64,000 bases of DNA from NCBI GenBank assembly GCA_034436215.1, contig DAOTVU010000040.1, forward strand, positions 17,780 to 81,779. The letters run 5' to 3'. The stretch is from Dehalococcoidia bacterium (GTDB lineage Bacteria; Chloroflexota; Dehalococcoidia; GIF9; UBA5629). The notes beneath the pieces were generated by a model. That model was not told where the DNA came from. It saw only the letters and a list, made by a program, of their open reading frames with translations, and ran no database searches. Of the stretch, positions 2,189 through 18,135 are shown piece after piece (the stretch's first letter is position 1; every line of letters begins with the position of its first letter). Made by a program: the position numbers and the translations under genes.

Positions 2189-2236
2189 ATAGGTCAGGGG
2201 TAGTAAGATAATAAGTACAACCAATAAAAGATCTTT

Positions 2237-3757
2237 ATGAATAATATATTTCTCGTCCTGACCGCTATAGTATTTCTGGTTTTGCTTACCGGGATTTTCT
2301 ATTTTATGCCCCTCGAGTCTATCTGGATAGCCGCCGGTGTGTTGCTTGCTATATTGCTTTACCATTTCTTATCCCGGCTCATCAAAGGAAGACAGATCAG
2401 AGAACCGAAACCCAGTAAATGGCAGAACCTTAGCTCACTTCTCGTTATCTTCATAGTTATCTTTGTACTTTTCGTGGTCATATTGCGTGAAGCTGTATCT
2501 TCTATCATGATCCATATACTGCTGGTATCCCTGATTTTTACCATGATGATAAATTTTCTTACCGTTCCACTGGCTATATTTCATAAATTGAGGGAGAAAA
2601 AGCAGGTTTCAACATCCAGCGATTTTAAGCCGAGGGTGAGTATTATCGTACCAGCCTATAATGAGGAAAAAGTGGTTGCCAGAACTATCGAGACCCTTCT
2701 GGAGGCAGATTATCCTAATAAAGAGATAATAGTTGTCGACGACGGCTCAAAGGATAATACATATGCAATTGCTTCGAAATATATTAATAAAGGGGTAAAG
2801 GTTGTCCACCGGCCTAACGGGGGCAAATTTGCCGCCCTGAATACCGGTATTGCCATGTCGTCAGGTGAAATTATTGTTACGGTGGATGCAGATAGTTTAA
2901 TAGCACGCGCCGCCATTGCTGAAATCGTAAAGGGATTTGAAGATCCGGAAGTCGCGGGCGTTGCAGGGAATTTAAAGGTATTTAATACGGATAAACTGAT
3001 CGGAAAGATACAGGCACTGGAATATATCGTCCAGATACAGGTTGTACGCCGGGCTTTCGAAAATTTCGGATCATTGACTGTTGCTTCGGGAGCATTCAGT
3101 GCCTTCCGCAAAAAGGCACTCGAAGAGATCGGCTGGTATGATCCCGATTATCTACTCGAGGATTTTGATATTACTATCAAATTGCTCAAATCCCACAGGA
3201 TATTACATGGGAACAACGAAGCTGTATGCTATACTGAAGCACCGGAAACGCTGCGCGACGTTTACAGACAACGACTGAGCTGGTTCCGTGGAGACTTCCA
3301 GAATTTCTGGAAACACCGCGATACTTTCTTCAATCCCAGATTTGGCATTATGCACAAGCTGACCTTTCCTTACATGCTGATCTCAATGACACTGGTACCC
3401 ATAGCCAGTATCGTGGTGATCATTACTTCAATTATCATGTTGATAAATGGTGAGTGGATGACTTTATTATTAGCATTTGCATTATTCACCACTTTGCAGA
3501 TATTGTTATCGATAATAGCCATTCTGATTGCAGAAGAGGATCTGAAACTGGTAATTTACGCGCCATTATTTATTGTCGGCTATAAGCAATTTCTGGATTT
3601 TACCATGCTAAAAGCCCTTATCGATATCATACTTGGCGGTGGTACATATCTGCGCCGCGAAAGGGTTGCCAGGGTAGGTGATTCTTCTGCGGGCAGGCGT
3701 ACGCCAAATGAGAATCTAACCACACAGACAGCAACCGAAACCGGTAAAAACACTTAA
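2237..3757 (+). CDS. Family-2 processive glycosyltransferase (membrane-embedded polysaccharide synthase, PgaC/IcaA/BcsA/NodC-like)
   Basis: N-terminal and C-terminal TM helices flank a GT-A domain. Motifs seen: SIIVPAYNEE, DDGSKDNT, VTVDADS (DxD) and QRLSWFRGDFQ (QxxRW, the processive-synthase signature). Confidence 0.8.
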   Translation: MNNIFLVLTAIVFLVLLTGIFYFMPLESIWIAAGVLLAILLYHFLSRLIKGRQIREPKPSKWQNLSSLLVIFIVIFVLFVVILREAVSSIMIHILLVSLIFTMMINFLTVPLAIFHKLREKKQVSTSSDFKPRVSIIVPAYNEEKVVARTIETLLEADYPNKEIIVVDDGSKDNTYAIASKYINKGVKVVHRPNGGKFAALNTGIAMSSGEIIVTVDADSLIARAAIAEIVKGFEDPEVAGVAGNLKVFNTDKLIGKIQALEYIVQIQVVRRAFENFGSLTVASGAFSAFRKKALEEIGWYDPDYLLEDFDITIKLLKSHRILHGNNEAVCYTEAPETLRDVYRQRLSWFRGDFQNFWKHRDTFFNPRFGIMHKLTFPYMLISMTLVPIASIVVIITSIIMLINGEWMTLLLAFALFTTLQILLSIIAILIAEEDLKLVIYAPLFIVGYKQFLDFTMLKALIDIILGGGTYLRRERVARVGDSSAGRRTPNENLTTQTATETGKNT

Positions 3758-3803
3758 ATTATATACGTGCAATGATGGTATCTTCTTAAGAGGAATTTTA
3801 AAA

Positions 3804-4769
3804 GTGAAGGAAATCTTAGACTATTATGCCGGAAAAAGAGTCCTGGTTACAGGCGGTGCCGGTTTTATCGGTTCGCATCTGGTTGAGAAATTGCTCAACC
3901 TGCAGGCATCCGTTAGCGTAATCGATATTATGCTGTGCGGAAATAAAATAGCCCATCTGGAAGGAAATAAGAATTTAAGGATATATAAAGCCGATGTAAC
4001 CGATTTACAGGCTATCACTCCCTTTTTTGATGGGCAGGACATTGTTTTTCATATGGCCGCAGTTGTGGGCGTTGAAGAAACACAGGACGAGCCGGTCAAC
4101 CTTCTCAATGTCGAGGTAGGAGGCACTGCCAATGTAATAGCACTGGCAGCAAAAAACAAAGTACATAGGTTTATTTTTGCTTCATCGTCCGAAGTCTATG
4201 GGGATTCTGCCGAGCCTATGAAGGAAGATGGCCCTTTCAATCCAAAGTCAACCTATGCACTTGCCAAGCTGATCGGCGAGCATTACTGCAAAGCTTATTA
4301 TAAAAAATATGGCCTCGAATATACTGTACTGCGCTATTTTAACTCGTATGGTCCTCGACAGGACGAGCGCTTCGTACTTTCTCGTTTTATTACGAGAGCT
4401 TTAAACGGGCACGAACTTCACATTTATGGCGACGGAACGCAAACGCGCGATTTCACCTACATTGATGATAGCGTTCATATGACCCTCCTGGCTGGCGCTA
4501 TGGTGACTGGTATTAATCAAATTTTTAATTTCGGTACCGGTCGTGCAGTGTCAATAAATACGCTGGCCGATCTTGTTCTGCAAAAACTGGGATTAAAGGA
4601 CAGGGTACCTGTCAAACACGTAGACTATGATCACAGAAGGACCCGGGAAATAGAGGTATTCCACAGGCTGGCCAATGTAGATCTGGCAGAGAAATTACTG
4701 GGTTACCGCCCGTTAATAGACCTGGAGACCGGAATCGAGAAATGCATTGCATGGTATCGCAGCCGCTGA
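3804..4769 (+). CDS. NAD-dependent epimerase/dehydratase (UDP-sugar 4-epimerase / UDP-glucuronate decarboxylase-like, extended SDR)
   Basis: GTG start. Rossmann motif VTGGAGFIGSH and catalytic YxxxK (YALAKLIGEHY). Length 321 aa, typical for the family. Confidence 0.85.
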   Translation: MKEILDYYAGKRVLVTGGAGFIGSHLVEKLLNLQASVSVIDIMLCGNKIAHLEGNKNLRIYKADVTDLQAITPFFDGQDIVFHMAAVVGVEETQDEPVNLLNVEVGGTANVIALAAKNKVHRFIFASSSEVYGDSAEPMKEDGPFNPKSTYALAKLIGEHYCKAYYKKYGLEYTVLRYFNSYGPRQDERFVLSRFITRALNGHELHIYGDGTQTRDFTYIDDSVHMTLLAGAMVTGINQIFNFGTGRAVSINTLADLVLQKLGLKDRVPVKHVDYDHRRTREIEVFHRLANVDLAEKLLGYRPLIDLETGIEKCIAWYRSR

Positions 4770-4783
4770 TATATGCAGACCAG

Positions 4784-6610
4784 CTATTTGGTAACCGATT
4801 TCTGACAAACGGAATAATTGTACCATTGTTCGAAGGTAGTTATCGTTCCCTGCTTTTTTGTCCAGTTGATTATTGGTTGAATCAAAGCGATCTTCTCTTT
4901 ATCAATGGTGCCATCTGAACGCACAAAGGCGTCGGGATGTATCGTGATGGCAGCTACCCCCAGATAACCAAGCAAGTAACATAAATTGGTCCCTATTTCA
5001 TTATAAAATTGTTCTTCATAGGCCGCATGGTATCTGCAGTAGTCAGCAATGCCGGCAGGCCGGCTGATATCAATTACATTACCCCATACCAGCCTTGTCT
5101 CATCCCACTCGCAAACATCGCTGGCAGTCGGTATTCGGTACATGCCCGCAGGATTCTTATGTCCATCTACGTCAACAGGCTCAACCGAGGGATTGGGCTC
5201 TTCGGTTATATGAGTGGAAAATATTTTGAAACCCGCATCCTGTACAGCCAGATATCCCATTCTATCCCATGAATCGGTAGGTACCGTTAAGGCCACAGGG
5301 TCCAAACCGAAATACTTTGCATAGCTATCGCGGGCTTTTCGAAGTTTCAATTTAATGTCGGTATATTCAGTTTGTGAACGGGCAGTATCGAGCTGGTAAA
5401 ACTCCCAATCATATCCGTGGACGCTTATACCGACCACACCCCGGTTGAGGTAATCCTTTATCCAGGGTATATCGTATGAATCGGCACCGTCGGCATTCGA
5501 CACTATGCCCAGATCAAGAGGTACATTATTTTTTTCGAACAGCAAAATTATCTCCCTGACAACATCCTCATAATACCCCTTAGCCACGTCATCGAGCCGA
5601 AAAATTATAGCTGGACCTCCATTGTAAGCCGGCATAATGCGTTTACCGGTCGTTGCCTCAGTCCACCGCACCTGGTAGCTGTACCAGTCCTCGGCAGAGG
5701 TTATGTCACCCTTCAATTGTAAGGTTTTAATCAAGCCATACAGCTGAGAGATCCGCAGAGGATCCACTTCACCGTTTGTATTGATAAATGACGATGGTAG
5801 TATTTCAACTGCTGCAGCCGCATTCCGATCAAGGGTCTGGTCAATAGTAGATTCAACGGCCTTATCAACTCTGGATAATATAGCAGTGTTTATAGCCTCA
5901 TTAGCCTTACCTTTCCTGGGCGGAGGAAGAGAATAGTCCAGGGTAGCCACGATAGGTAAGTAGTAGATACCTCGCGAGTCAGGCATTATCGACTGCGATT
6001 TATGGTCCACCGAAGGATTGTATGTATTTTGATAACCGGTGGCAATTACTCTGAAACCGGCGGCCAAAATCGCCGAATAGTTTATCTCTGAAAAATATAA
6101 ATCCGGTAATAAGCATGTCATAGGTTCATGTCCGAAGAAATCAGTTAACTCCTTGCGATATTTTGAAAGGTCGTCTATCAATTTACCGTAAAGCGGATCG
6201 TTTTTAGAAGTATCTGCCTCAAGCCATGCAATTGAATTACCATCAAAGCAGATATTTATCATGCCAGCATCAACAAAATCCTGTAAATATTTTAAGCTAT
6301 CATAGCTGCCATTCCCCGGTAAAGGCGGCAGAGCTACCTCTACTGCGACCCTTTGCCGTCCGAAGATCCGGATAATCTGATCCGTAGCCGATTTAAGGCT
6401 GTTATCGATTTGACTGATGATGAATACAATGGCACTACGATTACCCACATATGGGGGTGTGCTCACTTTACGTGTATGAATTTGCTGAACCTGTGATTTA
6501 TCGGGTTCCTGTCTCACCTGCGTTACAGGTATATACGAACATGCAATGATCGTTAGAAGGGTAAAAAATATGGCTAATTTTAAACCGCAGTTTACTATAC
6601 TGGATTTCAT
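4784..6610 (-). CDS. Lipoprotein with a C-terminal polysaccharide-deacetylase (CE4/NodB)-like domain and an N-terminal domain of unknown (possibly hydrolase) function; PelA/PgaB-like architecture
   Basis: Signal peptide plus lipobox (LLTIIAC). The C-terminal half has CE4-like motifs IIFRLDDV (cf. TFDDG) and SVHGYDW (His motif); the rest is divergent. 608 aa. Confidence 0.4.
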   Translation of the reverse strand: MKSSIVNCGLKLAIFFTLLTIIACSYIPVTQVRQEPDKSQVQQIHTRKVSTPPYVGNRSAIVFIISQIDNSLKSATDQIIRIFGRQRVAVEVALPPLPGNGSYDSLKYLQDFVDAGMINICFDGNSIAWLEADTSKNDPLYGKLIDDLSKYRKELTDFFGHEPMTCLLPDLYFSEINYSAILAAGFRVIATGYQNTYNPSVDHKSQSIMPDSRGIYYLPIVATLDYSLPPPRKGKANEAINTAILSRVDKAVESTIDQTLDRNAAAAVEILPSSFINTNGEVDPLRISQLYGLIKTLQLKGDITSAEDWYSYQVRWTEATTGKRIMPAYNGGPAIIFRLDDVAKGYYEDVVREIILLFEKNNVPLDLGIVSNADGADSYDIPWIKDYLNRGVVGISVHGYDWEFYQLDTARSQTEYTDIKLKLRKARDSYAKYFGLDPVALTVPTDSWDRMGYLAVQDAGFKIFSTHITEEPNPSVEPVDVDGHKNPAGMYRIPTASDVCEWDETRLVWGNVIDISRPAGIADYCRYHAAYEEQFYNEIGTNLCYLLGYLGVAAITIHPDAFVRSDGTIDKEKIALIQPIINWTKKQGTITTFEQWYNYSVCQKSVTK

Positions 6611-6690
6611 AACATAATATTAAGGATTTAATTGCGATGAGTCAAAATACGGTCAGAAGTTCATCCTACGCCGTAAAATACGTTATTATT

Positions 6691-7746
6691 ATGTGTATGC
6701 ACCGTAAATTTGCAACTGCCGAAATAATCATAATTCTATTATTTACCACATTTACCGGATGTGTATTTAAGCCTGATGGTACTAACATAACATTGCCGTC
6801 ATCGAATTTATCTGAAAACAGAGGTAATTTGACTTCATCGAGGATCATATACACAATGAAGGGCGTAGGCATCGATTTGCCGCCGGATGATTTTGCTGAT
6901 ATGAAAAAAGCAGGTATCGAAATACTGGGAACAGAGTGGGGTATGGAGGAAAGCATTGTGAGAGTAAGAGCTTTCCTTGATCAGGCAGAGAAAGCCGGAT
7001 TAAAGGTGGTGATGGATGGTGGTTTCAGTTATACCGCCTGGGGGTTCACAGATGATGATTGGGACAATTTGCCGCCTGGCAAACATCCCGTATGGCAAAA
7101 GGAAAGAGTTCAGAAATGGGTGGATGCCTTGAAGGATCATCCGGCTATATATGCCTGGGATATATGTAATGAATTCGGCGAAAATCTGCCCAGCGGAGCC
7201 GGTATCAGGGGATCAGATTGGCCCAGAGGTCGAATAACCTTGGAACAGATCAAACAGGCAAAGGCCGATATACAGGCAATAGACCCGACAAGACTGTTTC
7301 ATCTGCGAATGTACGGCTGGAACACTGAAAAAATGGAACCGCATATAAATGCGTTACTCTCGAGTGGGATAATAGATATCATATCTTTAAACCTGTATTC
7401 AAACTATCTGGAGAAGGGCAGGCTTGAATGGCCCGGGGTAATTCAGGATGCAGGACAATATTATGTTGATAAAATCAAAGAGCTTTCTCCCAAAACGAAG
7501 GTCTGGTTATCTATAGCGGCCTTTGAATATCCGGGGATATTTCAGCGGCCCACTAATTTTTCATTGATCAGAGATTTGAAATCTGCAACCAGAATAAAAA
7601 ATCTGGATGGGATTTCCTTTTTTTGCTGGGGCCCGGTTAGTCAATGGGATGACAAATGTAACTGGTACCTGCCGCAAACAGGAACCGATATATGGGACAT
7701 AATCAAAAGATATTTAAAGGATCCGCAGAAATTTGTCGCAAACTGA
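6691..7746 (+). CDS. Glycoside hydrolase, (beta/alpha)8 clan GH-A (GH5/GH113-like), lipoprotein
   Basis: The ORF opens at 6637; the likely start is an internal Met at 6691 or 6697, just before a lipobox (LLFTTFTGC). DICNEFGE matches the GH-A acid/base NEP motif and AAFEYPG is a candidate nucleophile Glu. Confidence 0.5.
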   Translation: MCMHRKFATAEIIIILLFTTFTGCVFKPDGTNITLPSSNLSENRGNLTSSRIIYTMKGVGIDLPPDDFADMKKAGIEILGTEWGMEESIVRVRAFLDQAEKAGLKVVMDGGFSYTAWGFTDDDWDNLPPGKHPVWQKERVQKWVDALKDHPAIYAWDICNEFGENLPSGAGIRGSDWPRGRITLEQIKQAKADIQAIDPTRLFHLRMYGWNTEKMEPHINALLSSGIIDIISLNLYSNYLEKGRLEWPGVIQDAGQYYVDKIKELSPKTKVWLSIAAFEYPGIFQRPTNFSLIRDLKSATRIKNLDGISFFCWGPVSQWDDKCNWYLPQTGTDIWDIIKRYLKDPQKFVAN

Positions 7747-7762
7747 TATTTAATTAGCTCTG

Positions 7763-9163
7763 CTATCGACTTATATTCAATAATTCCCTGGCTGCACGTT
7801 CGAGGTCAGGATCGTCTGTAAGCTCAATACATTTTTCCACATCCTGTCGGGCTTTAACCATATCGCCTAGCTCTTTATAGATTATTGCTCTGGTGTAGTA
7901 GGCCACCGCCATTTCATAATCGATTTTAATAGCCTCATTGCTATCCTTCAATGCCCGATCTAGTTCGCCTTTCTTATAATAGCACCAGGCGCGCCTGTCA
8001 TAAGCCTGAGCAAGCTTCGGATTGAGTTCAATTGCCCTATCGCAGTCCTTTATAGCATAATCCCATTGAGACAGGTTTATATAGGCCCATGCTCTGGTGG
8101 TATAGGCAAGAGCAAATTTGGGATTCAGCTCAATGGCTTTAGTAGCATCTACAAGCGCAAGATTATAAAGATGCTTCAATATGTAACCCCACGCACGCAT
8201 GTTATAAGCCAGAGCAAAGTTCGGATTCAATTCTATTGCTTTATTGCAGTCGTCCATCCCCATGGTCAACCAGTCCCGCGTGTAATCATATGATACCTTT
8301 TCAAAATAAACCCACGCTCTCATTGTATAGGCAAAAGGCAATTGGGGATTTAATTCGAGCGCTTTATTACAATCCTCAATAGCGATATCATGTCTTCCTT
8401 TCATTGTATTGGCCCATGCACGGTTTACGTAGGCCGTAGCTAATTTCGGTTCAAGCTCGATTGCTTTATTGCAATCTGCTATTGCCAGATCATATCCTCC
8501 CGTCTGGTTATATGCCCATGCGCGGTTAACATAGGCCAGAGGGATTGTCGGATCAAGATCGATGGTTTTGTTGCAATCTTCGATAGCCTGTTCATATTTG
8601 CCCATTTCATTATAAGACCATGCCCTGTTCATATAAGCGATAGCCCTGCCCGGAGCGATATCAATGGCACGATTACAGTCTTTAACAGCTTCTTCATATC
8701 TGCCTTTGGCATTCAGCGCCCATGCCCTGTTGATATATGCCAGTTCATTACGGGGGCTGATATCTATCGCCCTATCACAATCGGCCAGAGCCAGATCATA
8801 CAGGCCTTTTTCATTATAAGCCGAAGCGCGTGTGATATAGGCAAGCGCCATCCGTGAATTAATAGCCAGCGCCTTATTGCAATCCGCTATCGCAAGATCG
8901 TATTGACCGATCTGGTTGTAAGCCAGAGCCCTGTTTACAAAAATGATAGCTTGATGAGAGTCTCTGCTTATGGCTAAGGTGTATTCATCGACTGCCCTAT
9001 CATACTGTTTTTCGGCATAATAAACATTGCCCTTCTTATAATGCTCGGTTGGGGAATCAAGAAGATTACAGGAAGATAATACAGGCATCACTAAAGCTAT
9101 AAACACTATAACTGCTATGCTGGAAAATAATGTGTATATGCTGGCGTTCTTCGATAAATGCAT
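7763..9163 (-). CDS. TPR-repeat lipoprotein (about 12 tandem 34-aa TPR units)
   Basis: Lipobox VLSSC, followed by repeated A-Y-x-N-R-A-x-A-Y / AI-x-DC-x-KAIEL-(N/D)P units throughout. Confidence 0.8.
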   Translation of the reverse strand: MHLSKNASIYTLFSSIAVIVFIALVMPVLSSCNLLDSPTEHYKKGNVYYAEKQYDRAVDEYTLAISRDSHQAIIFVNRALAYNQIGQYDLAIADCNKALAINSRMALAYITRASAYNEKGLYDLALADCDRAIDISPRNELAYINRAWALNAKGRYEEAVKDCNRAIDIAPGRAIAYMNRAWSYNEMGKYEQAIEDCNKTIDLDPTIPLAYVNRAWAYNQTGGYDLAIADCNKAIELEPKLATAYVNRAWANTMKGRHDIAIEDCNKALELNPQLPFAYTMRAWVYFEKVSYDYTRDWLTMGMDDCNKAIELNPNFALAYNMRAWGYILKHLYNLALVDATKAIELNPKFALAYTTRAWAYINLSQWDYAIKDCDRAIELNPKLAQAYDRRAWCYYKKGELDRALKDSNEAIKIDYEMAVAYYTRAIIYKELGDMVKARQDVEKCIELTDDPDLERAARELLNISR

Positions 9164-9235
9164 TTGCAGTTAAGTATATCCAGAATGATGGGAATAGCAC
9201 AACTTACCTTGACGTATATATCTGGTTAATCTACT

Positions 9236-9265
9236 ATTAGACTAACGATTATTAGACTAACGATT
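9236..9265. repeat. Perfect tandem direct repeat, 2 x 15 bp (ATTAGACTAACGATT), in the divergent intergenic region
   Basis: Read directly from the sequence at 9236-9250 and 9251-9265. It sits between the TPR gene start (9163, minus strand) and the GT2 start (9339, plus strand). Confidence 0.9.
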
Positions 9266-9338
9266 ACAGGCGGTGAATTTACGCTGAGATGGCTTCCGGT
9301 CAGCGTTATATCTGCGTGATATCGACAGGATAAAATAA

Positions 9339-10697: not shown

Positions 10698-10705
10698 TAA
10701 TTTGA

Positions 10706-11743
10706 TCAATTATAGCCCTTAATTACTCTATTAAGAGCTGCCATGAATCTTTTTTTACCTATCTCTGCATATAATATTCGAACACGTCCGTTAGGGTCAC
10801 CACCTTCATACCACATTCTTACGCGGTCGCCTTCGACAATAATGCTGGGGGAGGTTGACCATTTTTCATCGTATCTGCCGGGAGTTTGTCCGTGGACAAA
10901 AAGAAGTCCGTTCTTCACCCAGTTCTTCCCATCTTTACTGCTGGCAAGATATAGATTAAGGTAGTCAGCCATAGTGAATATTATGCAATAGCTATCGTCT
11001 ATCCTGAAAGCCGTGAGATTTCTATAAACCTGCGTTTCTCCGATAGATGGGTCCGGCGACAATACTTTACCCTTTTTATTCCATGATAGGCCGTCGCTGG
11101 ATTCGGCCAGACCGTAAAATGTCCATCCCGGATTCTGTTTACCATAGCCTTTATAGTACATAAGATATTTATTATCCACTTTTATTACGGTGTGTTGACC
11201 GCCAGCTCCCTCGTTATCCCAGGCGTTGCTTGTCTTACGTAAAACCGGGTTGCCGTCATAGCGGCTCCAATTTACGCCGTCTGATGATGATGCATAACAT
11301 GCACATCCACCATATGCTTCGGCGCCATACCACATTTTATAGATACCATTTTCATATATAACTGTCATAGGATCTATTTTATCCCCTTCATAATCAGTCG
11401 AGGGCGTCATACATACACCGGTTTTTATCCAGATTATGCCGTCATCCGATGTCGCACGCATTATCCTGCCGACTTTGTCTGCAAAACTCTGTCCGCGATA
11501 CCACATAACATATAAATTATTGGCGAGTTTAACAACTACGGGTGATTCGATCGATTTATCATCGGGACTGCCTGGACTACCGAGGTCAATTACTACACCC
11601 TTCAACATCCATGGTAAGGCGCCAGTTCCCACAACTTCAAGGTCAGCAGCTTTATAAGCTGTTAGCTCAAAGACGAATATAGCAACTACCGAGATAATTG
11701 TAATAGACAGCCCGATAACAAGAAAAATAATCTTACTTTTCAA
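10706..11743 (-). CDS. Membrane-anchored BNR/Asp-box beta-propeller protein (sialidase/GH33- or GH43/GH130-like glycosidase fold)
   Basis: N-terminal TM anchor. Three Asp-boxes of the form S-x-D-G-x-x-W (TSDDGIIW, SSDGVNWS, SSDGLSWN). The repeated hydrophobic beta-strand pattern fits a propeller. Confidence 0.5.
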   Translation of the reverse strand: MKSKIIFLVIGLSITIISVVAIFVFELTAYKAADLEVVGTGALPWMLKGVVIDLGSPGSPDDKSIESPVVVKLANNLYVMWYRGQSFADKVGRIMRATSDDGIIWIKTGVCMTPSTDYEGDKIDPMTVIYENGIYKMWYGAEAYGGCACYASSSDGVNWSRYDGNPVLRKTSNAWDNEGAGGQHTVIKVDNKYLMYYKGYGKQNPGWTFYGLAESSDGLSWNKKGKVLSPDPSIGETQVYRNLTAFRIDDSYCIIFTMADYLNLYLASSKDGKNWVKNGLLFVHGQTPGRYDEKWSTSPSIIVEGDRVRMWYEGGDPNGRVRILYAEIGKKRFMAALNRVIKGYN

Positions 11744-11863
11744 TAATTTAAAATTAGCCTCTGCGTAACTATCAAATTTTTATTATTTACTAATCGGCTT
11801 ACACTTGATAAGATTAATTAACATGATAAGTATATTTGGTAATAGGTCACAATGCAAAGTCAG

Positions 11864-11892
11864 TTAGCAGGCAAATATTATTATGTTATAAT
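11864..11892 (+). promoter_or_regulatory. Putative sigma70-like promoter (-35 TTAGCA, 17-bp spacer, -10 TATAAT) upstream of the 1228-aa surface-protein gene
   Basis: TATAAT at 11887-11892 and TTAGCA at 11864-11869, inside an AT-rich 187-bp divergent intergenic region. Confidence 0.25.
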
Positions 11893-11930
11893 GACTTATC
11901 GGAGGTAGCAGCCTGTATAAAAGGAAAAAT

Positions 11931-14900
11931 TTGTATATGCCTACTGTGTCAAAATCCTCGTTTAAATTAGTTATTACTGAAATAACGAATAGAGTAAATA
12001 AATTCCATTTGAAATACAATTTAAATTTGATTTTAAAGAATTTCCCGCCCGGTGCGGGATTTTTATTTTATCTGCTTATGCTAATCTCTTTGTTGCCTTT
12101 ACCCCGCATTCTGCTTACCGAACCGGTGACTGCTGATGCGGGCATTATGAGATGGGATACGGTGGCTACGCCCGGTTCCGTTTATGGACGCTTTGATGTG
12201 CTCAATCCAAGTGATATCGTCAGCCTTGCGGCGGGATCGTTGGGTAGAGTAGTTGCAGTTGTTAGAGTGGCAGAGACGACTCCTTCCGGGGCGCAGAATC
12301 AATTATTTTACAGTAACAACTATGGAATCGAATGGAAAGATGCTGCTTTTTATACTTTGAATAGCGGAGGATGGGGCAATAACGAGATATTTGAGATAGC
12401 GGTTGCTCCGGATAACCCCAATGTCTGGGCGATAGTGGCCGGATATTCAGACGAAAGTAACCGTCCCAAACATGTCTGGTATACCGATGATTCCGGTGTC
12501 TCATGGGTGGATACCAATATCCAGCTCGCTAATACCACGGAGACGATCAGAAGTATCGATATCTCACCATTATACGGTAATGGGCTCAGAGACATAGGGG
12601 TTACAACCGTTACCGGCGCAGGAAGCGGGAGGTTCTACATTACTTCATCGAAAACATGGAGTAGCTGGTTTGATCAATCACTCAGTCCTTCGGTTTTGCC
12701 GGTGCCTTCGAGCAGGGCAGATTACTTTAACATCAAATTTTCACCTAACTATGCCAGCGACTTCTCAATTGCACTTGTGTATGCTACCGGGGACGCAACT
12801 TATTTCAATGTGGGCTTTAGGGACGTCAATCAAAATGTGACATTGAGCTATGCCTTCAACGGGCAGGGCGTAGAAGTTAAGAATTCCGCTTCAGCAAATA
12901 ATGCGTCTCCCGGCTATGGCCAGATAAACAATGCATGTCTGCAGTTGCCTGCCGATTTCACCGGCCAGAGTTCTACGCTGCGCAGAGCTTATATTAGCCT
13001 GGATGCCAGCCCCAAAACGCCGGGATCAAGCGAAGACGGCGTTTTTCGGGTTGATGATACCCACGTATACGTACTTATGGATACAACCAGGACAGCAGAT
13101 AAATCTATTTACAGCATTGCATACTACGGTACCTATGCTCAGGGAAAGCTTTTACTGGGTGAACGAAACGGCTATCCGTGTACTGCAACCGTGCCGACCT
13201 GGTTTACCGATTCACCAACTACATGCCCTGTACCGTGCTGGTACCCCGCTCTTAAACCTCCAACCGGCGCAGCTGCCCAGGGCACCTGTGTTGCAGGCAC
13301 CAAGGATGGTACAGGGGCGGCAATCGTTCTATGGAATGATGATGGTAGCCTCTCTTACGCCGCTACAGGTTCCCTGGCCAGAACAACCGGTTCGGCATGG
13401 TATTCGAATTTGTTATCTTCTCCAAAAGGGAATGATGAGTCTGCCTTTGCAGTGAGCCGGAATAATGGAGAAACATGGAATGAGCTCGGATTGATTGATA
13501 CTACCATAGACTGGTTCAACGACGTTGCACCTTCGGTAGATTGTTCTACCATATATCTGGCTTCGGCCAATTCAAACTCAGCGACTGGCTGTTCGGGTTT
13601 TGACAGTGTCTGGCGTTCTACACTAAATAAAGATGTGGCAAATCCATTGCCTATTAGCAATCCACCTTTATACTACTGGGAGCGGATACTTACGCGCACA
13701 ACTTCCGTTTCATGTAACGTCACACAGTCAAATAAACCGCTCCTGCGCCTTCCATTGGGTTGCACCGATCAACCCGATGGAAGTACCATAGCCTGGGCAG
13801 CGCAGGGCACAACGGCACAGATGTGGTCAGCCGATTATGGAGATTTCTGGGCAGATATTACAGCCCGTGACATTATCCAGGATTTTGCTTTTGAATCAAG
13901 TAAAATCCTGTATGATTTATCTCCCGGCGGATTGGTACACAGGCTTACGTATTCCGGCACTGCCTGGGATACAACCGCTAAGAGTTATGACAGCCGCGTG
14001 GTAAGTGCACACACAATTGCAGTCTACCCCAAAGACAAAGTTCTGGTAGGTGCAGCCGTGGATGGCGTGGTAGCCGCATCTTTTTCACCTACAAGGGGCG
14101 AGCAGTGGATTGAGATACCAAGAGGTGCACGTTTGAACGGCAACATACACGTAGCATTTGATGTCGATTTTGCCAATAACAAGTTCATCTATCTGGCAGA
14201 TGATAAGCTTGATGAAAACGGTAATAAGGATTCCAATCGTACAGGCACGGTTTTCAGAGAGCAGGCACCGGCTTATATTAAAATGGAAGATGCGGATATG
14301 ATGAGCGAGGGTAATGCCGGTCATTCTGCAGTTAAATGGCCTACCTTTGCTCCTAACGGCGTCAGGATTTATGATCCTCCTCACCGCGACGGGCAATTCG
14401 GTATAGCAACCGCAAAGACGGGTGACCCGCAGCCTGCTGTCTACACTGCTCACAATATTATACCGACCACACAGGGTATGAGAAACAGTGCAGTCTGCCG
14501 AACGCTTAGACCCTGGCAGGCTATGCCCAAATACGGTGTGCCGTGGGATTGTCTGGATGTGTATACGCCTGCTACGCAGAATGATGTGCATTTTACACTC
14601 GAACCGTCATCATTGAAAGCCTGCGGTTGTTGCACACTCGATTCATATACAACTCTTTTTGCTATTGATGATGTCTCCGGAGGAACATACGGTGATACGG
14701 GTTATGATCCGGAAAGAAACCAGGGCATGCTATGGGCTTATATTGATTGTCTTGCCAAGAAAGGGCCAGCCATAATATCACCACTTGACGGTGGTTTTAT
14801 CGGCAGCGATCCGGTTACTGGCCGGAATCAGCAGGTTGACCTTTCCTGGGAACAGCTATGTGTGGCTGTAAAGTACGAAATGCAAATTGCCAAGGACCGA

Positions 14901-15617
14901 GACTTTACACTTAAGGTAAATCCCGCCTCAACATCACCTGGCGGTAAAGTATCAATAACCGCAGTCACCGGGTCGATAACCGTAAACCTGGATAACCAGA
15001 ATGTGACCACGCCGGCGCTGTGGATAGCTCCTGGTGCTCTGCCTGAATCCGGTGCCACCTATTGGTGGAGGGTTAGGGTAATACAATCAACAACAGGCCA
15101 GCTTGCCACCAGTCCATGGTCTAAGGAAGCCAGTTTTTCCATAAAGCCGGGATTTATAACAAAAACCCCGGTCCAGTGTATCGAACTTTTAGGCCCTGTC
15201 AATGGCTGCACAGGATGCCCGGTGAAACCCACGGCTTTTTCCTGGACGCCTTATAAGGAAGCGACCAAATATGAGTTTGTTCTGGCCCGGGACCCATCCT
15301 TTATGCAGATTATTAAGAAGGCTATTACAACGGGAACGTCCTATGAGTACAAAGATGCCCTGGACTACAGCAGGAGTTATTACTGGCGTGTACGCGGAAT
15401 CGAAATAAACGGTAAATCCAATGTGAGTGAATGGAGCTCCACCTTTACTTTCCAGACAGTTGCGCCACCTCCTCCTGAACCCGCTAAACCAACCAAACAG
15501 CAGCAATTTCAGAAGGAAAATCCAAATTATCTGTGGCTGATTATCGCCATAATTTTTGCAGTGCCGATTTTATTGATCGTTTTAATCAGGCAAACAAGAA
15601 GATCCAGGTGGGATTAA
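11931..15617 (+). CDS. Large (1228 aa) cell-surface protein: BNR/Asp-box-containing beta-propeller region(s), C-terminal Fn3/Ig-like beta-sandwich repeats, Pro-rich stalk and C-terminal TM anchor
   Basis: The ORF-track start is TTG at 11931, with an alternative ATG at 11937; the true start is uncertain. Asp-box-like motifs YTDDSGVSW, SRNNGETW, WNDDGSLSY. The C-terminus reads PPPPEPAKPTKQQQ...LWLIIAIIFAVPILLIVLIRQTRRSRWD, a single TM followed by a basic tail. Confidence 0.6.
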   Translation: MYMPTVSKSSFKLVITEITNRVNKFHLKYNLNLILKNFPPGAGFLFYLLMLISLLPLPRILLTEPVTADAGIMRWDTVATPGSVYGRFDVLNPSDIVSLAAGSLGRVVAVVRVAETTPSGAQNQLFYSNNYGIEWKDAAFYTLNSGGWGNNEIFEIAVAPDNPNVWAIVAGYSDESNRPKHVWYTDDSGVSWVDTNIQLANTTETIRSIDISPLYGNGLRDIGVTTVTGAGSGRFYITSSKTWSSWFDQSLSPSVLPVPSSRADYFNIKFSPNYASDFSIALVYATGDATYFNVGFRDVNQNVTLSYAFNGQGVEVKNSASANNASPGYGQINNACLQLPADFTGQSSTLRRAYISLDASPKTPGSSEDGVFRVDDTHVYVLMDTTRTADKSIYSIAYYGTYAQGKLLLGERNGYPCTATVPTWFTDSPTTCPVPCWYPALKPPTGAAAQGTCVAGTKDGTGAAIVLWNDDGSLSYAATGSLARTTGSAWYSNLLSSPKGNDESAFAVSRNNGETWNELGLIDTTIDWFNDVAPSVDCSTIYLASANSNSATGCSGFDSVWRSTLNKDVANPLPISNPPLYYWERILTRTTSVSCNVTQSNKPLLRLPLGCTDQPDGSTIAWAAQGTTAQMWSADYGDFWADITARDIIQDFAFESSKILYDLSPGGLVHRLTYSGTAWDTTAKSYDSRVVSAHTIAVYPKDKVLVGAAVDGVVAASFSPTRGEQWIEIPRGARLNGNIHVAFDVDFANNKFIYLADDKLDENGNKDSNRTGTVFREQAPAYIKMEDADMMSEGNAGHSAVKWPTFAPNGVRIYDPPHRDGQFGIATAKTGDPQPAVYTAHNIIPTTQGMRNSAVCRTLRPWQAMPKYGVPWDCLDVYTPATQNDVHFTLEPSSLKACGCCTLDSYTTLFAIDDVSGGTYGDTGYDPERNQGMLWAYIDCLAKKGPAIISPLDGGFIGSDPVTGRNQQVDLSWEQLCVAVKYEMQIAKDRDFTLKVNPASTSPGGKVSITAVTGSITVNLDNQNVTTPALWIAPGALPESGATYWWRVRVIQSTTGQLATSPWSKEASFSIKPGFITKTPVQCIELLGPVNGCTGCPVKPTAFSWTPYKEATKYEFVLARDPSFMQIIKKAITTGTSYEYKDALDYSRSYYWRVRGIEINGKSNVSEWSSTFTFQTVAPPPPEPAKPTKQQQFQKENPNYLWLIIAIIFAVPILLIVLIRQTRRSRWD

Positions 15618-15671
15618 ATCTTCATCATCAATTTAAATAAAACGTTATCAAAATAAGGCCTTTGCTATTTG

Positions 15672-17429
15672 CTAATACAACAATGAAAGCGTTTTGCGGG
15701 TGGCGTCTCGCCCGCGGATGGCGTCTTCTAAAGTAGCATCCAGGGTGATGGCCTTATTGAAATCTTCCAGCGCAGACTGGTAATCAGACTTGTGAAAATA
15801 GGTCCATGCCCTGTTATCATATGACCAGGCATTAGCAGGATCCAGTTGAATAGCCCTGGTGAAATCGGTCAGCGATTCTTCATATTGACCCAGCCGTCGG
15901 TAAGCAAGACCACGCTTATTGTAATATGAATAGATAGTCGGATTTAGAGCTATCGCCTTAGTATAATCTTTGATGGCATTATCGTAGTTACCTATGTTTA
16001 TATACAGATTGCCCCTGCAGTAATAGGCATGCGCAAAATTTGGATCGAGTTCTATCGCCTTATTAAAATCCGCCAATGCCTCATCATATTTTTTCTTATT
16101 GTAGTATACATTGCCCCTGCCTAAATATGCATAAGGATTATCAGGATTCACGTCTATATAATTGTTGTAATCAGATACAGACCTATCATAATCGCCGGTT
16201 TTATAGAAGATCCATGCCCGTTTCTGGGCGTAGAGCTCATCTTCAGCACTGAGCTCTATAGCCATATTAAAATCGGCTATGGCCTCATCGGTATAACCCA
16301 TGCTGAATTTACAACTACCACGATTATGGTATGCATCGCTATATCGAGGATCGATCTTTATTGCAGTTGAAAAATCTTTTATTGCTTCCTGGAATTGGCC
16401 ATTTTTCTGATATAGCTTGCCCCTGGCATTATAAGCGGGCGCATAGTCGGATTGTACGGCAATTGCCTTGTCAAAATCCTGAAGAGCTTTTTCGTTATTC
16501 CCGGCGGCAAAGTAAGCCTTACCACGCTCTGTATAAGCTTCAAAATAATCCGGATTGATCTCGATAGCTCTGGTATAATCGGCAAAGGCCTTGCTTGTAT
16601 TCAAAATAGCGGCATACGATTTTCCACGTAAAATATAAACCTCTGCATAGTTGGGGTCGAGTTCAATAGCACGGTTGTAATCGGCAATTGCTAGATCGTA
16701 CTGTCCCCTAAGATAATAGACCTGCCCTCTGCTTTTATAGCTTTTTGGATCTCGAGGATCTATTGCGATGGCTTCGTTATAACTTTGTAACGCTTTTTGA
16801 TAATCGCCTTCTCTTGTATACATCCAGCCTATTTTACGGTGCACCTCCCGATCATCTTGCTTATATGTTAATTGCTTACGATAGTCAGATAAGGCTAATT
16901 CATATTCTCCCAGAGAAGAGTAAGTGTTTCCGCGGTAATAATAAATATTATTGTAATCCGGGTTTATAGAAACAGTACGGTTATAATCGTCCAAGGCTTC
17001 ACCAAATTTTCCCATAGCATAATAGGTGTTCGCCCTCTCAAAATAACCATCTGCATAGGCTGGATCGAGTTTGATTGCCAGCGTAAAATCATTAATGGCA
17101 TTCTGGTATTCTCTGGTATTAAAGTAAGCCTTACCACGATTGTAGTAATATTTAGGTTCAGCTGGCTCCAGCTTAATTGCTCGAGAGAAGTCGTCAATAG
17201 CTTTTATATAATCTGCTTTGTGGTAATATGCGAGACCACGGTTATTGTAAGCGATAGCATAACCGGGATCGAGATGGATGGATGTTGTATAATATGATAT
17301 CGCTTCATCCCAGGATTTACTGTTCCGGGCCATGTCACCGTAACGAAATGCTGCCATACCTGGCTTCACGCATGAAATTAATAATGACCCCAGTAATGCT
17401 ATCGATATAATCTTAATAAACCATTTCAT
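15672..17429 (-). CDS. TPR-repeat lipoprotein (about 16 TPR units)
   Basis: The ORF extends to 17540, but the probable start is the internal Met (MKWFIKIISIALLGSLLISC, lipobox) at 17429, which removes the overlap with the upstream gene. The TPR consensus Y-x-x-R-G-x-x-Y is repeated throughout. Confidence 0.75.
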   Translation of the reverse strand: MKWFIKIISIALLGSLLISCVKPGMAAFRYGDMARNSKSWDEAISYYTTSIHLDPGYAIAYNNRGLAYYHKADYIKAIDDFSRAIKLEPAEPKYYYNRGKAYFNTREYQNAINDFTLAIKLDPAYADGYFERANTYYAMGKFGEALDDYNRTVSINPDYNNIYYYRGNTYSSLGEYELALSDYRKQLTYKQDDREVHRKIGWMYTREGDYQKALQSYNEAIAIDPRDPKSYKSRGQVYYLRGQYDLAIADYNRAIELDPNYAEVYILRGKSYAAILNTSKAFADYTRAIEINPDYFEAYTERGKAYFAAGNNEKALQDFDKAIAVQSDYAPAYNARGKLYQKNGQFQEAIKDFSTAIKIDPRYSDAYHNRGSCKFSMGYTDEAIADFNMAIELSAEDELYAQKRAWIFYKTGDYDRSVSDYNNYIDVNPDNPYAYLGRGNVYYNKKKYDEALADFNKAIELDPNFAHAYYCRGNLYINIGNYDNAIKDYTKAIALNPTIYSYYNKRGLAYRRLGQYEESLTDFTRAIQLDPANAWSYDNRAWTYFHKSDYQSALEDFNKAITLDATLEDAIRGRDATRKTLSLLY

Positions 17430-17490
17430 TTCAAATATATTGGTGAGAATCCCGATAATCACAATTCCATTTAAACCGATAAAAGCAGAC

Positions 17491-18135
17491 TCATGCATGC
17501 TTGAGTGCAACACCCTCAAGCACGTTGGCAACATCCTCACACATATCCGTCGCCCCCTCCAGCTGTTCGAATATCTCGCGCCATTTGATGATCTCCGCTA
17601 TTTCCGCCGTGTCATCAAATAGTTCTTTAAGCGCAGAACGGTAGATTTTATCGGCGATATTTTCCAGTCTGTTGATTTCGACACAGCTTCCCAGTATTTT
17701 TTCCAGATTGGCATTATGTCTTCTCAGACTGGGCATTACATTTTCAACTTCGGTGGTAATCTGGACCAGTATATCCGCCAGTTCTTTGGCTCTACTTCCC
17801 GGCTTCTTTACGTTATACAGCATCATGGTGTCACCGGCCGCCTGCAGCAGGTCCGTAACATCGTCGAGTGAGTGTGCCAGCATCCCTATATCCTCCCGAT
17901 CAAACGGGGTGATAAATGATCGGTTTAACTGATACATGATCTCATGTGTGATGGTATCGCCCTGATGCTCGATTCTGGTAAGCTCATCCACTTTCTGCTC
18001 GATATTCTCCCAGTTATATATCATGTCTTGTAAAACCAGTGCGGCCTTGACCATATTATGGGCGCTAACTTCAAACAGATCAAAGAAGCGGTCATCGCGT
18101 GGCATTAAATTTAATTTAAACATCTCAACCAGCAT
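17491..18135 (-). CDS. DUF47 / PhoU-related protein (phosphate-transport-regulator-like, TIGR00153 family)
   Basis: All-helical ~210-aa protein with the characteristic DUF47 N-terminus (FDLFEVSAHNMVKAALVLQDM...). The start may be the Met at 18123. Confidence 0.65.
   Translation of the reverse strand: MLVEMFKLNLMPRDDRFFDLFEVSAHNMVKAALVLQDMIYNWENIEQKVDELTRIEHQGDTITHEIMYQLNRSFITPFDREDIGMLAHSLDDVTDLLQAAGDTMMLYNVKKPGSRAKELADILVQITTEVENVMPSLRRHNANLEKILGSCVEINRLENIADKIYRSALKELFDDTAEIAEIIKWREIFEQLEGATDMCEDVANVLEGVALKHA

Follow-up and report, generated by a model that had tools for sequence, protein, structure and literature searches.

A two-module Dehalococcoidia gene cluster with a probable role in synthase-dependent production of a cell-surface polysaccharide

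The region analysed here, which lies at the start of a 64,000-nucleotide stretch of DNA (the window), is a Dehalococcoidia-specific gene cluster, conserved in uncultured members, whose probable role, judging from homology and synteny, is to make a cell-surface polysaccharide by a synthase-dependent route. For this polymer, an N-acetyl-hexosamine or a uronic derivative thereof is the most likely building block. The architecture of the cluster is like that of known biofilm-polysaccharide systems, with parts that are uncharacterised, and the literature on this Dehalococcoidia lineage yielded no experimentally characterised member of such a system. The ten open reading frames of the first-pass annotation, with strands alternating + + - + - + - + -, were all present (Table 1). 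The logic that it had proposed, a synthase with a deacetylase, a hydrolase and TPR proteins, was borne out by family scans, two AlphaFold models and synteny, with several details proving wrong. This logic of synthase, deacetylase fold, hydrolase fold and TPR holds because neither of two tests refuted it: the GT2 proteins were not of the dolichol-phosphate or teichoic type, their matches covering the GT domain and the membrane region, and co-conservation in relatives was strong. We consider the reading supported in part for several reasons. First, the GT2 proteins score far below equivalog cut-offs, the genes fall into two modules, a neighbouring GH3 gene drops out and neither a c-di-GMP receptor nor PgaD was seen in the cluster. 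Second, the TackOD1 regulator, a two-component pair and an NDP-sugar dehydrogenase are the most conserved partners. Third, a matrix polymer and a wall- or S-layer-associated glycan are not distinguishable here.

Table 1. Genes of the cluster, in window positions
Feature	Position	Strand	Support
REC-TackOD1-2xMrr_cat-like response regulator	1..2188	+	Pfam TackOD1 109, Response_reg 41, Mrr_cat 34 bits
GT2a, membrane-embedded PgaC/IcaA-like GT2 synthase, 506 aa	2237..3757	+	PF00535 139.8 bits
Extended-SDR nucleotide-sugar 4-epimerase/dehydratase-type enzyme, 321 aa, cytoplasmic	3804..4769	+	PF01370 207 bits
Tandem deacetylase-fold (DUF2334/CE4-like) lipoprotein, 608 aa	4784..6610	-	AlphaFold pLDDT 88.8; lipobox IIAC, Cys24
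Clan GH-A-like (beta/alpha)8 barrel lipoprotein, 369 aa (longest ORF)	6637..7746	+	AlphaFold pLDDT 84.8
TPR lipoprotein, 466 aa, last gene of module A	7763..9163	-	TPR_1 267 bits, 11 repeats; lipobox LSSC
GT2b, HAS/NodC/chitin-synthase-like membrane GT2, 452 aa	9339..10697	+	GT2 family models 37.7-49.6 bits
Membrane-anchored five-bladed propeller, GH130/GH32/GH43 type, 345 aa	10706..11743	-	GH32N 37 bits
Surface protein, 1,228 aa	11931..15617	+	BNR/sortilin-VPS10-like propeller, C-terminal Ig/FN3-like, TM 1201-1219
Second TPR lipoprotein, last gene of module B	15672..17429	-	TPR_1 424 bits, 14 repeats; signal MKWFIKIISIALLGSLLISC

Gene order and conservation of the two modules

Synteny was compared across about 40 related loci. 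In some 25 of them, from different MAGs and metagenomes, the same order recurred: NDP-sugar dehydrogenase, GAF histidine kinase, OmpR-type regulator, REC-TackOD1-Mrr regulator, GT2a, SDR epimerase, tandem DUF2334 protein, a facultative GH-A barrel and a TPR lipoprotein. This widely conserved block, module A, was kept down to identities of 60% for GT2a, 45% for the TackOD1 regulator and 32% for the deacetylase-fold protein. It begins upstream of window position 1, since the window opens inside the cluster, and the source contig carries three further conserved genes there (the dehydrogenase and the two-component pair), the same as in the loci of relatives. The SDR gene lay 3' of GT2a in 24 module A loci, and the first TPR lipoprotein was syntenic in 25; the GH-A gene was found in 17 of the 25 loci covering that interval and was absent from 8. 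The remaining four genes form an accessory module B: GT2b and the propeller, followed by the 1,228-aa BNR/sortilin-like surface protein and the second TPR lipoprotein. The earlier picture of one locus with two GT2 synthases stood as to the genes but not as to a single machine, the synthases belonging to separable modules.

The REC gene, which had been named only in passing, turned out to be the most conserved partner of GT2a; the other conserved partners, the two-component pair and the dehydrogenase, lie outside the window. It encodes 732 aa on the source contig, its first 20 codons falling outside the window, where its frame is open up to position 2, and it is complete in one related locus. 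This gene lay directly 5' of GT2a in every GT2a homolog examined, and the two formed the sole invariant pair across loci. The TackOD1 response regulator is an unusual regulator that is always paired with the synthase cluster.

Intergenic gaps measured 8-187 nt, and the genes alternate strand and are therefore not one operon. This alternation is what would speak for chance neighbours whose genes do not work together, a view to which we assign next to no probability, as synteny already contradicts it: about 25 loci show the genes in the same order and orientation, at protein identities down to 32-60%. The gene linkage is not chance. The GH3 beta-glucosidase gene (18271-20559), 0.8 kb from the cluster, had been suggested as a further member; it was near the cluster in only one of the eight loci reaching that side, and we do not include it. 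A signal peptide was not found in the GH3 protein.

Synthases and predicted chain processing

The two GT2 proteins are membrane-embedded, as had been proposed: PF00535 and related models scored above cut-off for both, and hydrophobic blocks flank the GT domain on either side. The best curated match of GT2a was PgaC/IcaA (TIGR03937, 213 bits, far below the cut-off of 422; model positions 28-345 of 407), spanning the GT domain and the membrane region after it, and the best of GT2b was NodC (119 bits, far below the cut-off of 550; model positions 46-394 of 395), with Chlorella-virus HAS (7sp7) matched at 3e-22. Across the cluster, the family-model scan gave no gene that reached an equivalog cut-off. 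The nearest PDB entries of GT2a were 6yv7, HAS and BcsA, and chitin synthase was also matched. Polyprenyl-phosphate and teichoic-type transferases aligned with no more of the GT-A domain than its first ~100 residues, and this assignment was rejected for both proteins.

GT2a carries DDGS168, DADS217, EDFD308 and QRLSW345 (residues 345-349), and its catalytic D, DxD and ED motifs were kept in 118-119 of 120 homologs; the motifs of GT2b are GSDT137, GDDG235 and QQLRW273. The QxxRW motif, earlier attributed to both, is therefore present in GT2b but has lost its Arg in GT2a. This residue was missing in 92 of 92 orthologs (at least 54% identity), which read QRL[S/G]W, and more distant homologs had QRxRW in 28 of 28. 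In characterised processive GT2 synthases, the QxxRW Arg contacts the nucleotide diphosphate, as seen in BcsA structures. Its loss counts against reading GT2a as a processive synthase.

It seems unlikely that the GT2 enzymes yield short products on which the extracytoplasmic enzymes then act, be these chitooligosaccharide-like signals following NodC/NodB logic, a glycolipid or a lipid-linked oligosaccharide. The lost Arg, the match of GT2b to a chitooligosaccharide synthase with a deacetylase-fold protein nearby, and the closeness of GT2a to the Pyrobaculum membrane GT2 6yv7, which we take to be a mannosyltransferase in N-glycan biosynthesis, would agree with such products. However, the NodC score is low, the similarity takes in the channel-forming membrane region of PgaC, BcsA and HAS, and it is polymer systems that typically have TPR scaffolds, a tethered endo-type GH-A barrel and a tandem deacetylase.

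We favour polymer synthesis, in which GT2a would polymerise the sugar and thread the chain through its own membrane domain, as its homology and architecture suggest. The UDP-sugar donor would be tailored in the cytoplasm by the NDP-sugar dehydrogenase and the 4-epimerase-type enzyme. The latter, foreseen as an epimerase/dehydratase, was confirmed as an SDR, its nearest structures being GalE (4zrm), WbpP, WbgU and UDP-GlcA decarboxylase. The dehydrogenase, just outside the window, is WecC/TviB-like and scored 309, 275 and 228 bits with UDP-ManNAc/UDP-GlcNAc dehydrogenases versus 172 and 156 bits with UDP-glucose dehydrogenases. In one distant locus, the neighbours of the GT2a homolog come down to REC-TackOD1, GlmS and a CE4 deacetylase, a minimal cluster that suggests a HexNAc- or GlcNAc-derived polymer; the closer matches of the dehydrogenase agree with such a product.

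Outside the membrane, the lipid-anchored 608-aa protein may de-N-acetylate the chain, going by its modelled fold. The earlier description of a two-domain deacetylase-like lipoprotein was accurate, with both domains of deacetylase fold. Its best Foldseek matches were 3rxz and 3qbu (putative polysaccharide/peptidoglycan deacetylases), CE4 esterases, ArnD and GH57; the family scan gave no significant stretch with the GH57 model, and the DUF2334 score of the window copy was 22.1, below the Pfam cut-off of 26. The C-terminal domain retains D340, D341, H398 and H558, a D-D-H-H set invariant in 45 of 45 sequences, and would be the catalytic one. The N-terminal domain (S66, Q67, D123 and L271; motif in 12 of 45) is a degenerate copy that probably binds glycan. 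Similarly, the proposed GH-A-clan lipoprotein has a barrel fold (best Foldseek matches GH158, GH53, GH5, GH2, GH164, GH10 and GH26), a probable start at Met21 (position 6697) and the lipobox FTGC, and no match at the level of a CAZy family. Its N178-E179 pair is invariant and E297, the putative nucleophile, is at least 90% conserved, with Gln in its place in two orthologs and Ala in a third. This barrel may trim or release the chain, with the TPR lipoprotein as a candidate scaffold; both long TPR lipoproteins had been recognised correctly, lipoboxes included.

Output would be under phosphorylation control and not that of a recognisable c-di-GMP receptor, through the GAF histidine kinase, the OmpR-type regulator and the REC-TackOD1-Mrr protein, the last of which stands 5' of the synthase in every locus. 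Neither a PilZ or other c-di-GMP receptor nor a small membrane protein of PgaD/IcaD type was seen in the cluster. The notion of a monoderm version of such systems fits the Dehalococcoidia lineage and the logic holds, but these two components are absent.

Module B and the cell envelope

Module B starts with GT2b, always followed by the propeller gene; directly 5' of GT2b, two relatives have a UDP-sugar dehydrogenase gene in truncated form. Beyond the source organism's own contigs, it was found as a unit in eight loci extending past GT2b. Module B, which a subset of genomes carries, adjoins module A in all sequences long enough to show the junction. The second TPR lipoprotein occurred only where the other three genes were also present. 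This last protein has 585 aa from Met38 of a 622-aa ORF, which gives a lipoprotein signal peptide and makes 17429, the end of the region as first drawn, the likely true start of its gene.

Two BNR/Asp-box propellers had been described, which is right for the 1,228-aa protein and not for the 345-aa one, whose resemblance is to GH130, GH32 and GH43. The latter matched a GH130 beta-1,2-mannobiose phosphorylase model (54 bits) and GH43 models, and its best PDB hit was 9fj8, a GH130 1,2-beta-oligomannan phosphorylase (1e-9). A sialidase-type BNR identity was discarded on its GH130, GH32N and GH43 matches, despite SxDGxxW-like motifs in the translation. The family profile of the 1,228-aa protein matched sortilin (7e-7), as well as GH74 and sialidases; among 17 homologs, seven had Sortilin-Vps10 and three BNR matches, and Ig_Rha78A_N scored 31.5 bits. 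Its family counts 3,719 representatives, and the named members examined were all Dehalococcoidia. Not every accessory protein is a lipoprotein, as had been supposed: four of the six have a lipobox, whereas the 345-aa protein has an uncleaved N-terminal TM anchor and no Cys, and the 1,228-aa protein a C-terminal TM helix. All six are therefore extracytoplasmic.

These tethered glycosidase-like folds (GH-A barrel, GH130-like propeller, BNR propeller) and the nearby GH3 gene would also suit a catabolic locus, in which surface-tethered hydrolases, the deacetylase and the cytoplasmic GH3 degrade environmental chitin or plant glycan. We regard this as very improbable, as the GH3 gene is not syntenic, the conserved block contains no sugar transporter or binding protein, and what stays invariant is a GT2 synthase along with its regulator and the enzymes for sugar nucleotides.

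Module B may be for making or handling another glycan, and this glycan may be attached to the large BNR-type surface protein. A tentative alternative, which we hold distinctly less probable than the main reading, is that module B works for the cell envelope itself and not for a secreted matrix, as may the rest of the cluster: the 1,228-aa protein would be an S-layer-like wall protein, decorated or anchored by a glycan that GT2b, the propeller and the TPR lipoprotein make or remodel. The large family, the propeller with Ig/FN3-like domains and a C-terminal TM anchor, and the movement of module B always as a block including this protein agree with this proposal. DET1407 of Dehalococcoides is presumably annotated as a BNR/Asp-box protein. 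Also in favour, this putative S-layer protein is among the most abundant Dehalococcoides proteins (PMC5102406); the term BNR is absent from that paper. On the other hand, module B is missing from most loci that have module A, so the core can do without the 1,228-aa protein. Sequence does not separate a wall glycan from a matrix EPS.

Comparison with known polysaccharide systems

PNAG is made by pgaABCD in E. coli and icaADBC in Staphylococcus, the latter showing that the logic works in a monoderm. These systems combine a CE4-fold deacetylase (PgaB-N or IcaB), a glycosidase barrel (PgaB-C) and TPR repeats (PgaA). The cluster shares with them a membrane GT2 synthase, PgaC/IcaA being the top curated match of GT2a, and an extracytoplasmic CE4-fold deacetylase, glycosidase barrel and TPR protein. 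It differs in the low TIGR03937 score, in QRLSW for QxxRW, in four N-terminal TM helices of GT2a versus two (sequence inspection) and in the absence of a PgaD/IcaD partner. In addition, the deacetylase is of tandem DUF2334 type and one of its domains is dead, an unclassified GH-A barrel stands as a protein of its own in the role of hydrolase, the TPR protein is a lipoprotein with no porin fusion, and control is by a TackOD1 response regulator and not by c-di-GMP.

Pel (pelA-G; Gram-positive pelDEA(DA)FG with the pelX epimerase) and fungal GAG are partly de-N-acetylated HexNAc polymers, and have in common with the cluster a sugar-nucleotide 4-epimerase, polymerase, deacetylase, hydrolase and TPR scaffold. 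However, the polymerase PelF is a GT4 and not a membrane GT2, the hydrolase domain of PelA is GH166 and not clan GH-A, PelD binds c-di-GMP, and family scans gave no match to Pel models in the cluster.

GT2b resembles class I HAS, NodC and chitin synthases: residues 110-419 align with the Chlorella-virus HAS, nearly the full NodC model is covered, and the GDD...QQxRWxxxxxR pattern is common to both. The truncated dehydrogenase gene preceding GT2b in the two relatives recalls the has operon, which pairs a synthase with a UDP-sugar dehydrogenase. In contrast, the first Asp of the GT2b DxD is Gly (GSDT), its NodC score is low and its partners are a propeller, a giant BNR protein and a TPR lipoprotein; we know of no such partner for HAS or NodC.

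Finally, Listeria pssA-E/pssZ and Bacillus ydaJ-N are Gram-positive, c-di-GMP-controlled synthase loci, the Listeria product being ManNAc-based. Their regulators are c-di-GMP receptors and their hydrolases GH8, whereas the present cluster has no BcsB-like subunit and no family-level match to them. The likeness lies in a monoderm setting, in a GT2 synthase that has a hydrolase and a cytoplasmic regulator dedicated to it, and in a ManNAc-based product there and a WecC-like dehydrogenase here.

Layout and conservation of the cluster

The model best supported for the cluster is a monoderm version of a synthase-dependent system for a surface polysaccharide. Positions 1-17540 of the window carry ten ORFs, which alternate between the strands with 8-187 nt between neighbours, and the source contigs showed that the cluster begins upstream of the window (Table). 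The upstream genes of the conserved block (dehydrogenase, GAF kinase and OmpR-type regulator) occupy 4204-7695 of L037, the source-contig locus extending upstream of the window, and 16810-21805 of the related locus L003, where they are followed by a GGDEF + HD-GYP protein. Only 8-54 nt separate convergent ends, and 26-187 nt separate divergent starts (e.g. 4769-4784, 7746-7763, 10697-10706 and 15617-15672). The alternating-strand order, unusual for a biosynthetic cluster, is also kept in the relatives. It rules out a single operon, which counts against the polysaccharide model. For the GH-A barrel gene and for TPR622, a TPR lipoprotein, the longest ORF probably starts too early (at 6637-6697 and 17429-17540, respectively): starts at Met21 and Met38 give typical lipoprotein signal peptides, and that at Met38 also abolishes the overlap of TPR622 with the PhoU_div (DUF47) gene at 17491-18135. 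Promoter and terminator scans were uninformative, the terminator-like sites corresponding to the shuffled expectation, and the Rfam scan of the window yielded no riboswitch and only a tmRNA.

Table. Features of the cluster and of the remaining window (window positions)
Feature	Position	Strand	Source	Assignment
NDP-sugar dehydrogenase, 468 aa	upstream of window	-	source contig	WecC/TviB-like
Histidine kinase	upstream of window		source contig	GAF-HisKA
Response regulator	upstream of window		source contig	OmpR-type
REC-TackOD1-Mrr_cat protein, 732 aa	1-2188 (first 20 codons outside window)		source contig	
GT2a	2237-3757			PF00535, 139.8 bits
SDR	3804-4769			resembles GalE, WbpP, WbgU and UDP-GlcA decarboxylase equally well
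608-aa lipoprotein	4784-6610	-		predicted tandem deacetylase fold
GT2b	9339-10697			best matches NodC and Chlorella-virus hyaluronan synthase
tmRNA gene	34097-34445	+		bacterial type, tag peptide AEEAVPVAA
1,098-aa ORF	36194-39490	-		biotin carboxylase, biotin-carrier domain and carboxyltransferase domain fusion; predicted one-chain acyl-CoA carboxylase

Conservation was analysed by using the 608-aa family to scan a single genome of each species (33 loci) and GT2b to scan metagenomes (10 more loci), and synteny by tblastn with all window proteins separated the genes into two units. Module A runs in the order NDP-sugar dehydrogenase, kinase-regulator pair, TackOD1 regulator, GT2a and SDR, tandem DUF2334 protein (the 608-aa lipoprotein), GH-A barrel and TPR466, a TPR lipoprotein of 466 aa. 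Its order and orientation were identical in about 25 loci and persisted down to 60% identity for GT2a, 45% for the TackOD1 regulator and 32% for the 608-aa protein. The GH-A barrel gene was present in 17 of the 25 loci covering its position, and the kinase-regulator pair was absent from three loci. Module B (GT2b, invariably accompanied downstream by the propeller, 1,228-aa and TPR622 genes) was missing from most module A loci, in which unrelated genes come after TPR466, namely those for a nitroreductase and a cation-efflux protein and an ORF of 239 aa that matches no Pfam family; wherever the contig extended that far, module B adjoined module A (L038, L042, L044 and L045). The linkage of the cluster genes is more than chance, and a fortuitous neighbourhood is excluded, being contradicted by the synteny. 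The co-conservation in relatives that the first-pass annotation had proposed as a check on its Pel/PNAG-like exopolysaccharide locus (2237-17429) was therefore found. The related genome loci all came from Dehalococcoidia-type MAGs except for one bin labelled Thermotogaceae, and close homologs of GT2a likewise carry names of Dehalococcoidia or Chloroflexi MAG proteins.

The two glycosyltransferases and the donor sugar

PF00535 scored above its cut-off in both GT2a and GT2b. For GT2a, the best-scoring curated family was PgaC/IcaA TIGR03937 (213.3 bits, model positions 28-345 of 407), whose equivalog cut-off (422.3 bits, whole protein) was not reached, and the solved relatives were a membrane GT2 (6yv7), hyaluronan synthase and BcsA. 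The GT-A motifs DDGS168, DADS217 and EDFD308 were retained in 118-119 of 120 homologs, and hydropathy placed hydrophobic blocks on both sides of the GT domain, at 4-115 and 375-460, which may form a transmembrane channel as in processive synthases. At the QxxRW site, residues 345-349 (window 3269-3283) read QRLSW. The Arg was replaced by S or G in all 92 homologs with at least 54% identity, and was present (QRxRW) in all 28 homologs with 44-51% identity. The canonical form co-occurred with loci having neither dehydrogenase nor SDR, and the Arg-less form with loci having both. The lost Arg is a clade feature of GT2a. Its absence counts against the polysaccharide model, as does the lack of a PgaD/IcaD-like small membrane partner adjoining GT2a: GT2a is flanked by the genes for the TackOD1 regulator and the SDR, and the intergenic gaps are too short for an ORF.

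GT2b is a different type of GT2, about 25% identical to GT2a homologs. It scored 119.4 bits against NodC TIGR04242, below the 550-bit cut-off, and matched the Chlorella-virus hyaluronan synthase 7sp7 at 3e-22. Its motifs are GSDT137, GDDG235 and QQLRW, and its hydrophobic blocks lie at 12-30 and 305-444. Of the two QxxRW synthases originally described, GT2b thus keeps the motif, whereas GT2a and its 92 orthologs do not. A polyprenyl-phosphate or teichoic-type transferase identity was rejected for both, since similarity to those families is confined to the first ~100 GT-A residues; the first-pass annotation had named dolichol-phosphate or teichoic-acid transferases as an example of a refuting outcome. 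Short oligosaccharide or lipid-linked products come second by weight among the alternatives to a surface polysaccharide.

As for the donor sugar, the SDR reached no equivalog cut-off, and the fact that all scores of the cluster fall under such cut-offs is a further point against the polysaccharide model. The module A dehydrogenase is nearer to UDP-ManNAc/UDP-GlcNAc dehydrogenases than to UDP-glucose dehydrogenases, so a HexNAc uronic acid may be part of the product. In L045 and L040, GT2b is preceded by a truncated UDP-sugar dehydrogenase gene of 307 aa.

Predicted extracytoplasmic proteins

Sequence searches of the PDB were weak for the 608-aa and 369-aa lipoproteins, and fold prediction was therefore needed. 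The 608-aa protein had no PDB match at E<=1; its confident model (pLDDT 88.8) consists of two deacetylase-fold domains of the distorted (beta/alpha) barrel type, with 3rxz, 3qbu, 7ax7, 2cc0, 2c71 and ArnD as best Foldseek matches; CE4 esterases and GH57 also count among the closest folds. In the C-terminal domain, D340, D341, H398 and H558 were invariant in 45 of 45 family members and would be the metal/catalytic residues, with a putative role as metal ligands. The N-terminal domain keeps D-D-H-H in only 12 of the 45, which are the most divergent ones, and in the window protein these sites are S66, Q67, D123 and L271. Retention of the C-terminal set and its replacement in the N-terminal domain suggest that the protein combines one live and one degenerate domain, both predicted. 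Against family models, the window protein scored 22.1 bits for DUF2334 (PF10096; cut-off 26) with no hit to PF01522, and many homologs have precomputed hits to both. Literature searches for DUF2334 function gave nothing relevant. The tandem DUF2334 family is multi-copy: lone copies were observed in L009, L016, L017, L020 and L026, and second copies in L005, L006, L010, L012, L022 and L045, the extra copies sitting away from the cluster or beyond the dehydrogenase gene.

The model of the 369-aa protein (pLDDT 84.8) is a (beta/alpha)8 barrel whose best matches were all clan GH-A families. By sequence, it matched the PDB only at E~0.08, and a 14-ortholog profile gave E values of 0.025-0.14, all for GH2/GH42/GH158 at the Asn-Glu segment; no GH family model reached its cut-off. 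The putative acid/base pair N178-E179 was invariant among orthologs. The putative nucleophile E297 was at least 90% conserved, the exceptions being L003 and L019 (Gln) and L030 (Ala), and this lack of universality speaks against the polysaccharide model. At the level of predicted fold only, the tandem CE4-like protein and the GH-A barrel would supply the extracytoplasmic modifying enzyme and the glycosidase of such a system. Each module also encodes one TPR lipoprotein with an ordinary TPR array and a lipobox, TPR466 being syntenic in 25 loci. A GH3 enzyme tentatively assigned to the same locus by the first-pass annotation was dismissed, as it has no signal peptide and lies near the cluster in one locus only. 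A catabolic locus, third by weight among the alternatives, is unlikely because there is no transporter and the core is biosynthetic.

In module B, the 345-aa protein is a propeller of the GH130/GH32/GH43 type with an N-terminal anchor, and its earlier description as a BNR propeller did not hold. In L045, on a 1.2-Mb metagenome contig, its homolog forms part of a single 710-aa ORF (11424-13556, minus strand) with N-terminal REC and HD-GYP-type (HD_5) domains, a fusion suggesting that the propeller can serve as the extracellular portion of a signalling protein. The 1,228-aa protein is a member of a large family and carries Ig/FN3-like domains followed by a TM helix at the C-terminal end. The family profile matched sortilin-VPS10 (7e-7) and BNR propellers; Pfam detected Sortilin-Vps10 in 7 and BNR in 3 of 17 relatives, which are named 'hypothetical' and once 'TIR domain-containing', while the window protein stayed sub-threshold. 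Among the alternatives to the polysaccharide model, most weight goes to a glycan associated with the wall or S-layer, above all in the case of module B, whose 1,228-aa protein may be a homolog of the Dehalococcoides S-layer protein DET1407.

Candidate regulation and comparison with known systems

Every GT2a-family gene examined (window; L002-L032, L044 and L048-L053) is immediately preceded on its strand by a (REC-)TackOD1(-Mrr_cat) gene. These include four distant QRxRW-type homologs (45-48% identity), in which it lay 5-90 nt upstream and no other module A gene was present. One of these four loci has the order KaiC-like ATPase, PAS kinase, REC, REC-TackOD1, GT2, GlmS and CE4 deacetylase. GlmS supplies the pathway to UDP-GlcNAc, and GlcNAc polymers are substrates of CE4 deacetylases; their presence in this locus supports a HexNAc polymer for the GT2a family. 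The only descriptions of TackOD1 present it as a Cys-rich orphan output domain that occurs in TACK archaea and 'some bacteria' and, in Thaumarchaeota, lies close to type IV pilus loci (PMC5847659; PMC4858521). A sequence search of the PDB with the TackOD1-Mrr part gave no significant match and no solved relative.

The conserved block contains no PilZ, PelD-like or degenerate GGDEF protein that could serve as c-di-GMP co-polymerase or receptor; GGDEF/HD-GYP genes are limited to the vicinity of the block or, in single relatives, to fusions with the propeller. In known synthase-dependent systems, c-di-GMP is received by PilZ, PgaD, PelD or Alg44, and the joint absence of a PgaD/IcaD-like partner and of a c-di-GMP receptor weighs against the polysaccharide model. 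A speculative and rather improbable reading is that the TackOD1 protein replaces these receptors as a dedicated, phosphorylation-controlled activator or co-subunit of the PgaC-like clade. On this reading, the QxxRW Arg could have been lost because the donor is bound, or the enzyme activated, in a different way, and the TackOD1 domain would gain its first function. If the link between TackOD1 and GT2a is functional, the synthase would be controlled by phosphorylation instead of c-di-GMP, and a role would be assigned to a domain of unknown function common to archaea.

From what was observed, namely the assignments to families and folds, the residues conserved, the synteny and the predicted extracytoplasmic locations, we infer the enzymatic activities, polymer, TPR role and mode of regulation of the surface polysaccharide model. 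The donor sugar would be tailored in the cytoplasm, GT2a would polymerise and export the chain, the tethered lipoproteins would de-N-acetylate and trim it, the TPR lipoprotein would provide a scaffold, and the TackOD1 regulator would exert control together with the two-component pathway. Sediments, peat and aquifers harbour abundant Dehalococcoidia, whose cultured members lack a conventional cell wall. To our knowledge, the surface glycans of Dehalococcoidia have hardly been studied, and our literature searches for exopolysaccharide GT2 systems or clusters in Dehalococcoidia gave nothing relevant. With its wide conservation, the cluster offers a concrete candidate for such a glycan. It also brings together three families with no characterised member: the tandem DUF2334 proteins with one probably dead domain, the GH-A barrel, which falls outside all CAZy family models tested, and the Arg-less GT2 clade.

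Compared with known systems, the outer-membrane beta-barrel porin of synthase-dependent secretion systems has no counterpart in the cluster, and a porin is not expected in a monoderm Chloroflexota lineage; the PgaD or IcaD partner of PgaC/IcaA systems is likewise absent. In contrast, the cluster shares a TPR scaffold with synthase-dependent secretion systems (alginate, cellulose, PNAG and Pel), and its GT2s share with processive GT2 synthases (BcsA/HAS/CHS/PgaC) the GT-A domain with D, DxD and (T/E)ED motifs. No family-level comparison gave a clear membership. Altogether, the cluster would work like the pga/ica, Pel and Gram-positive c-di-GMP-controlled synthase loci while being a member of none of them.
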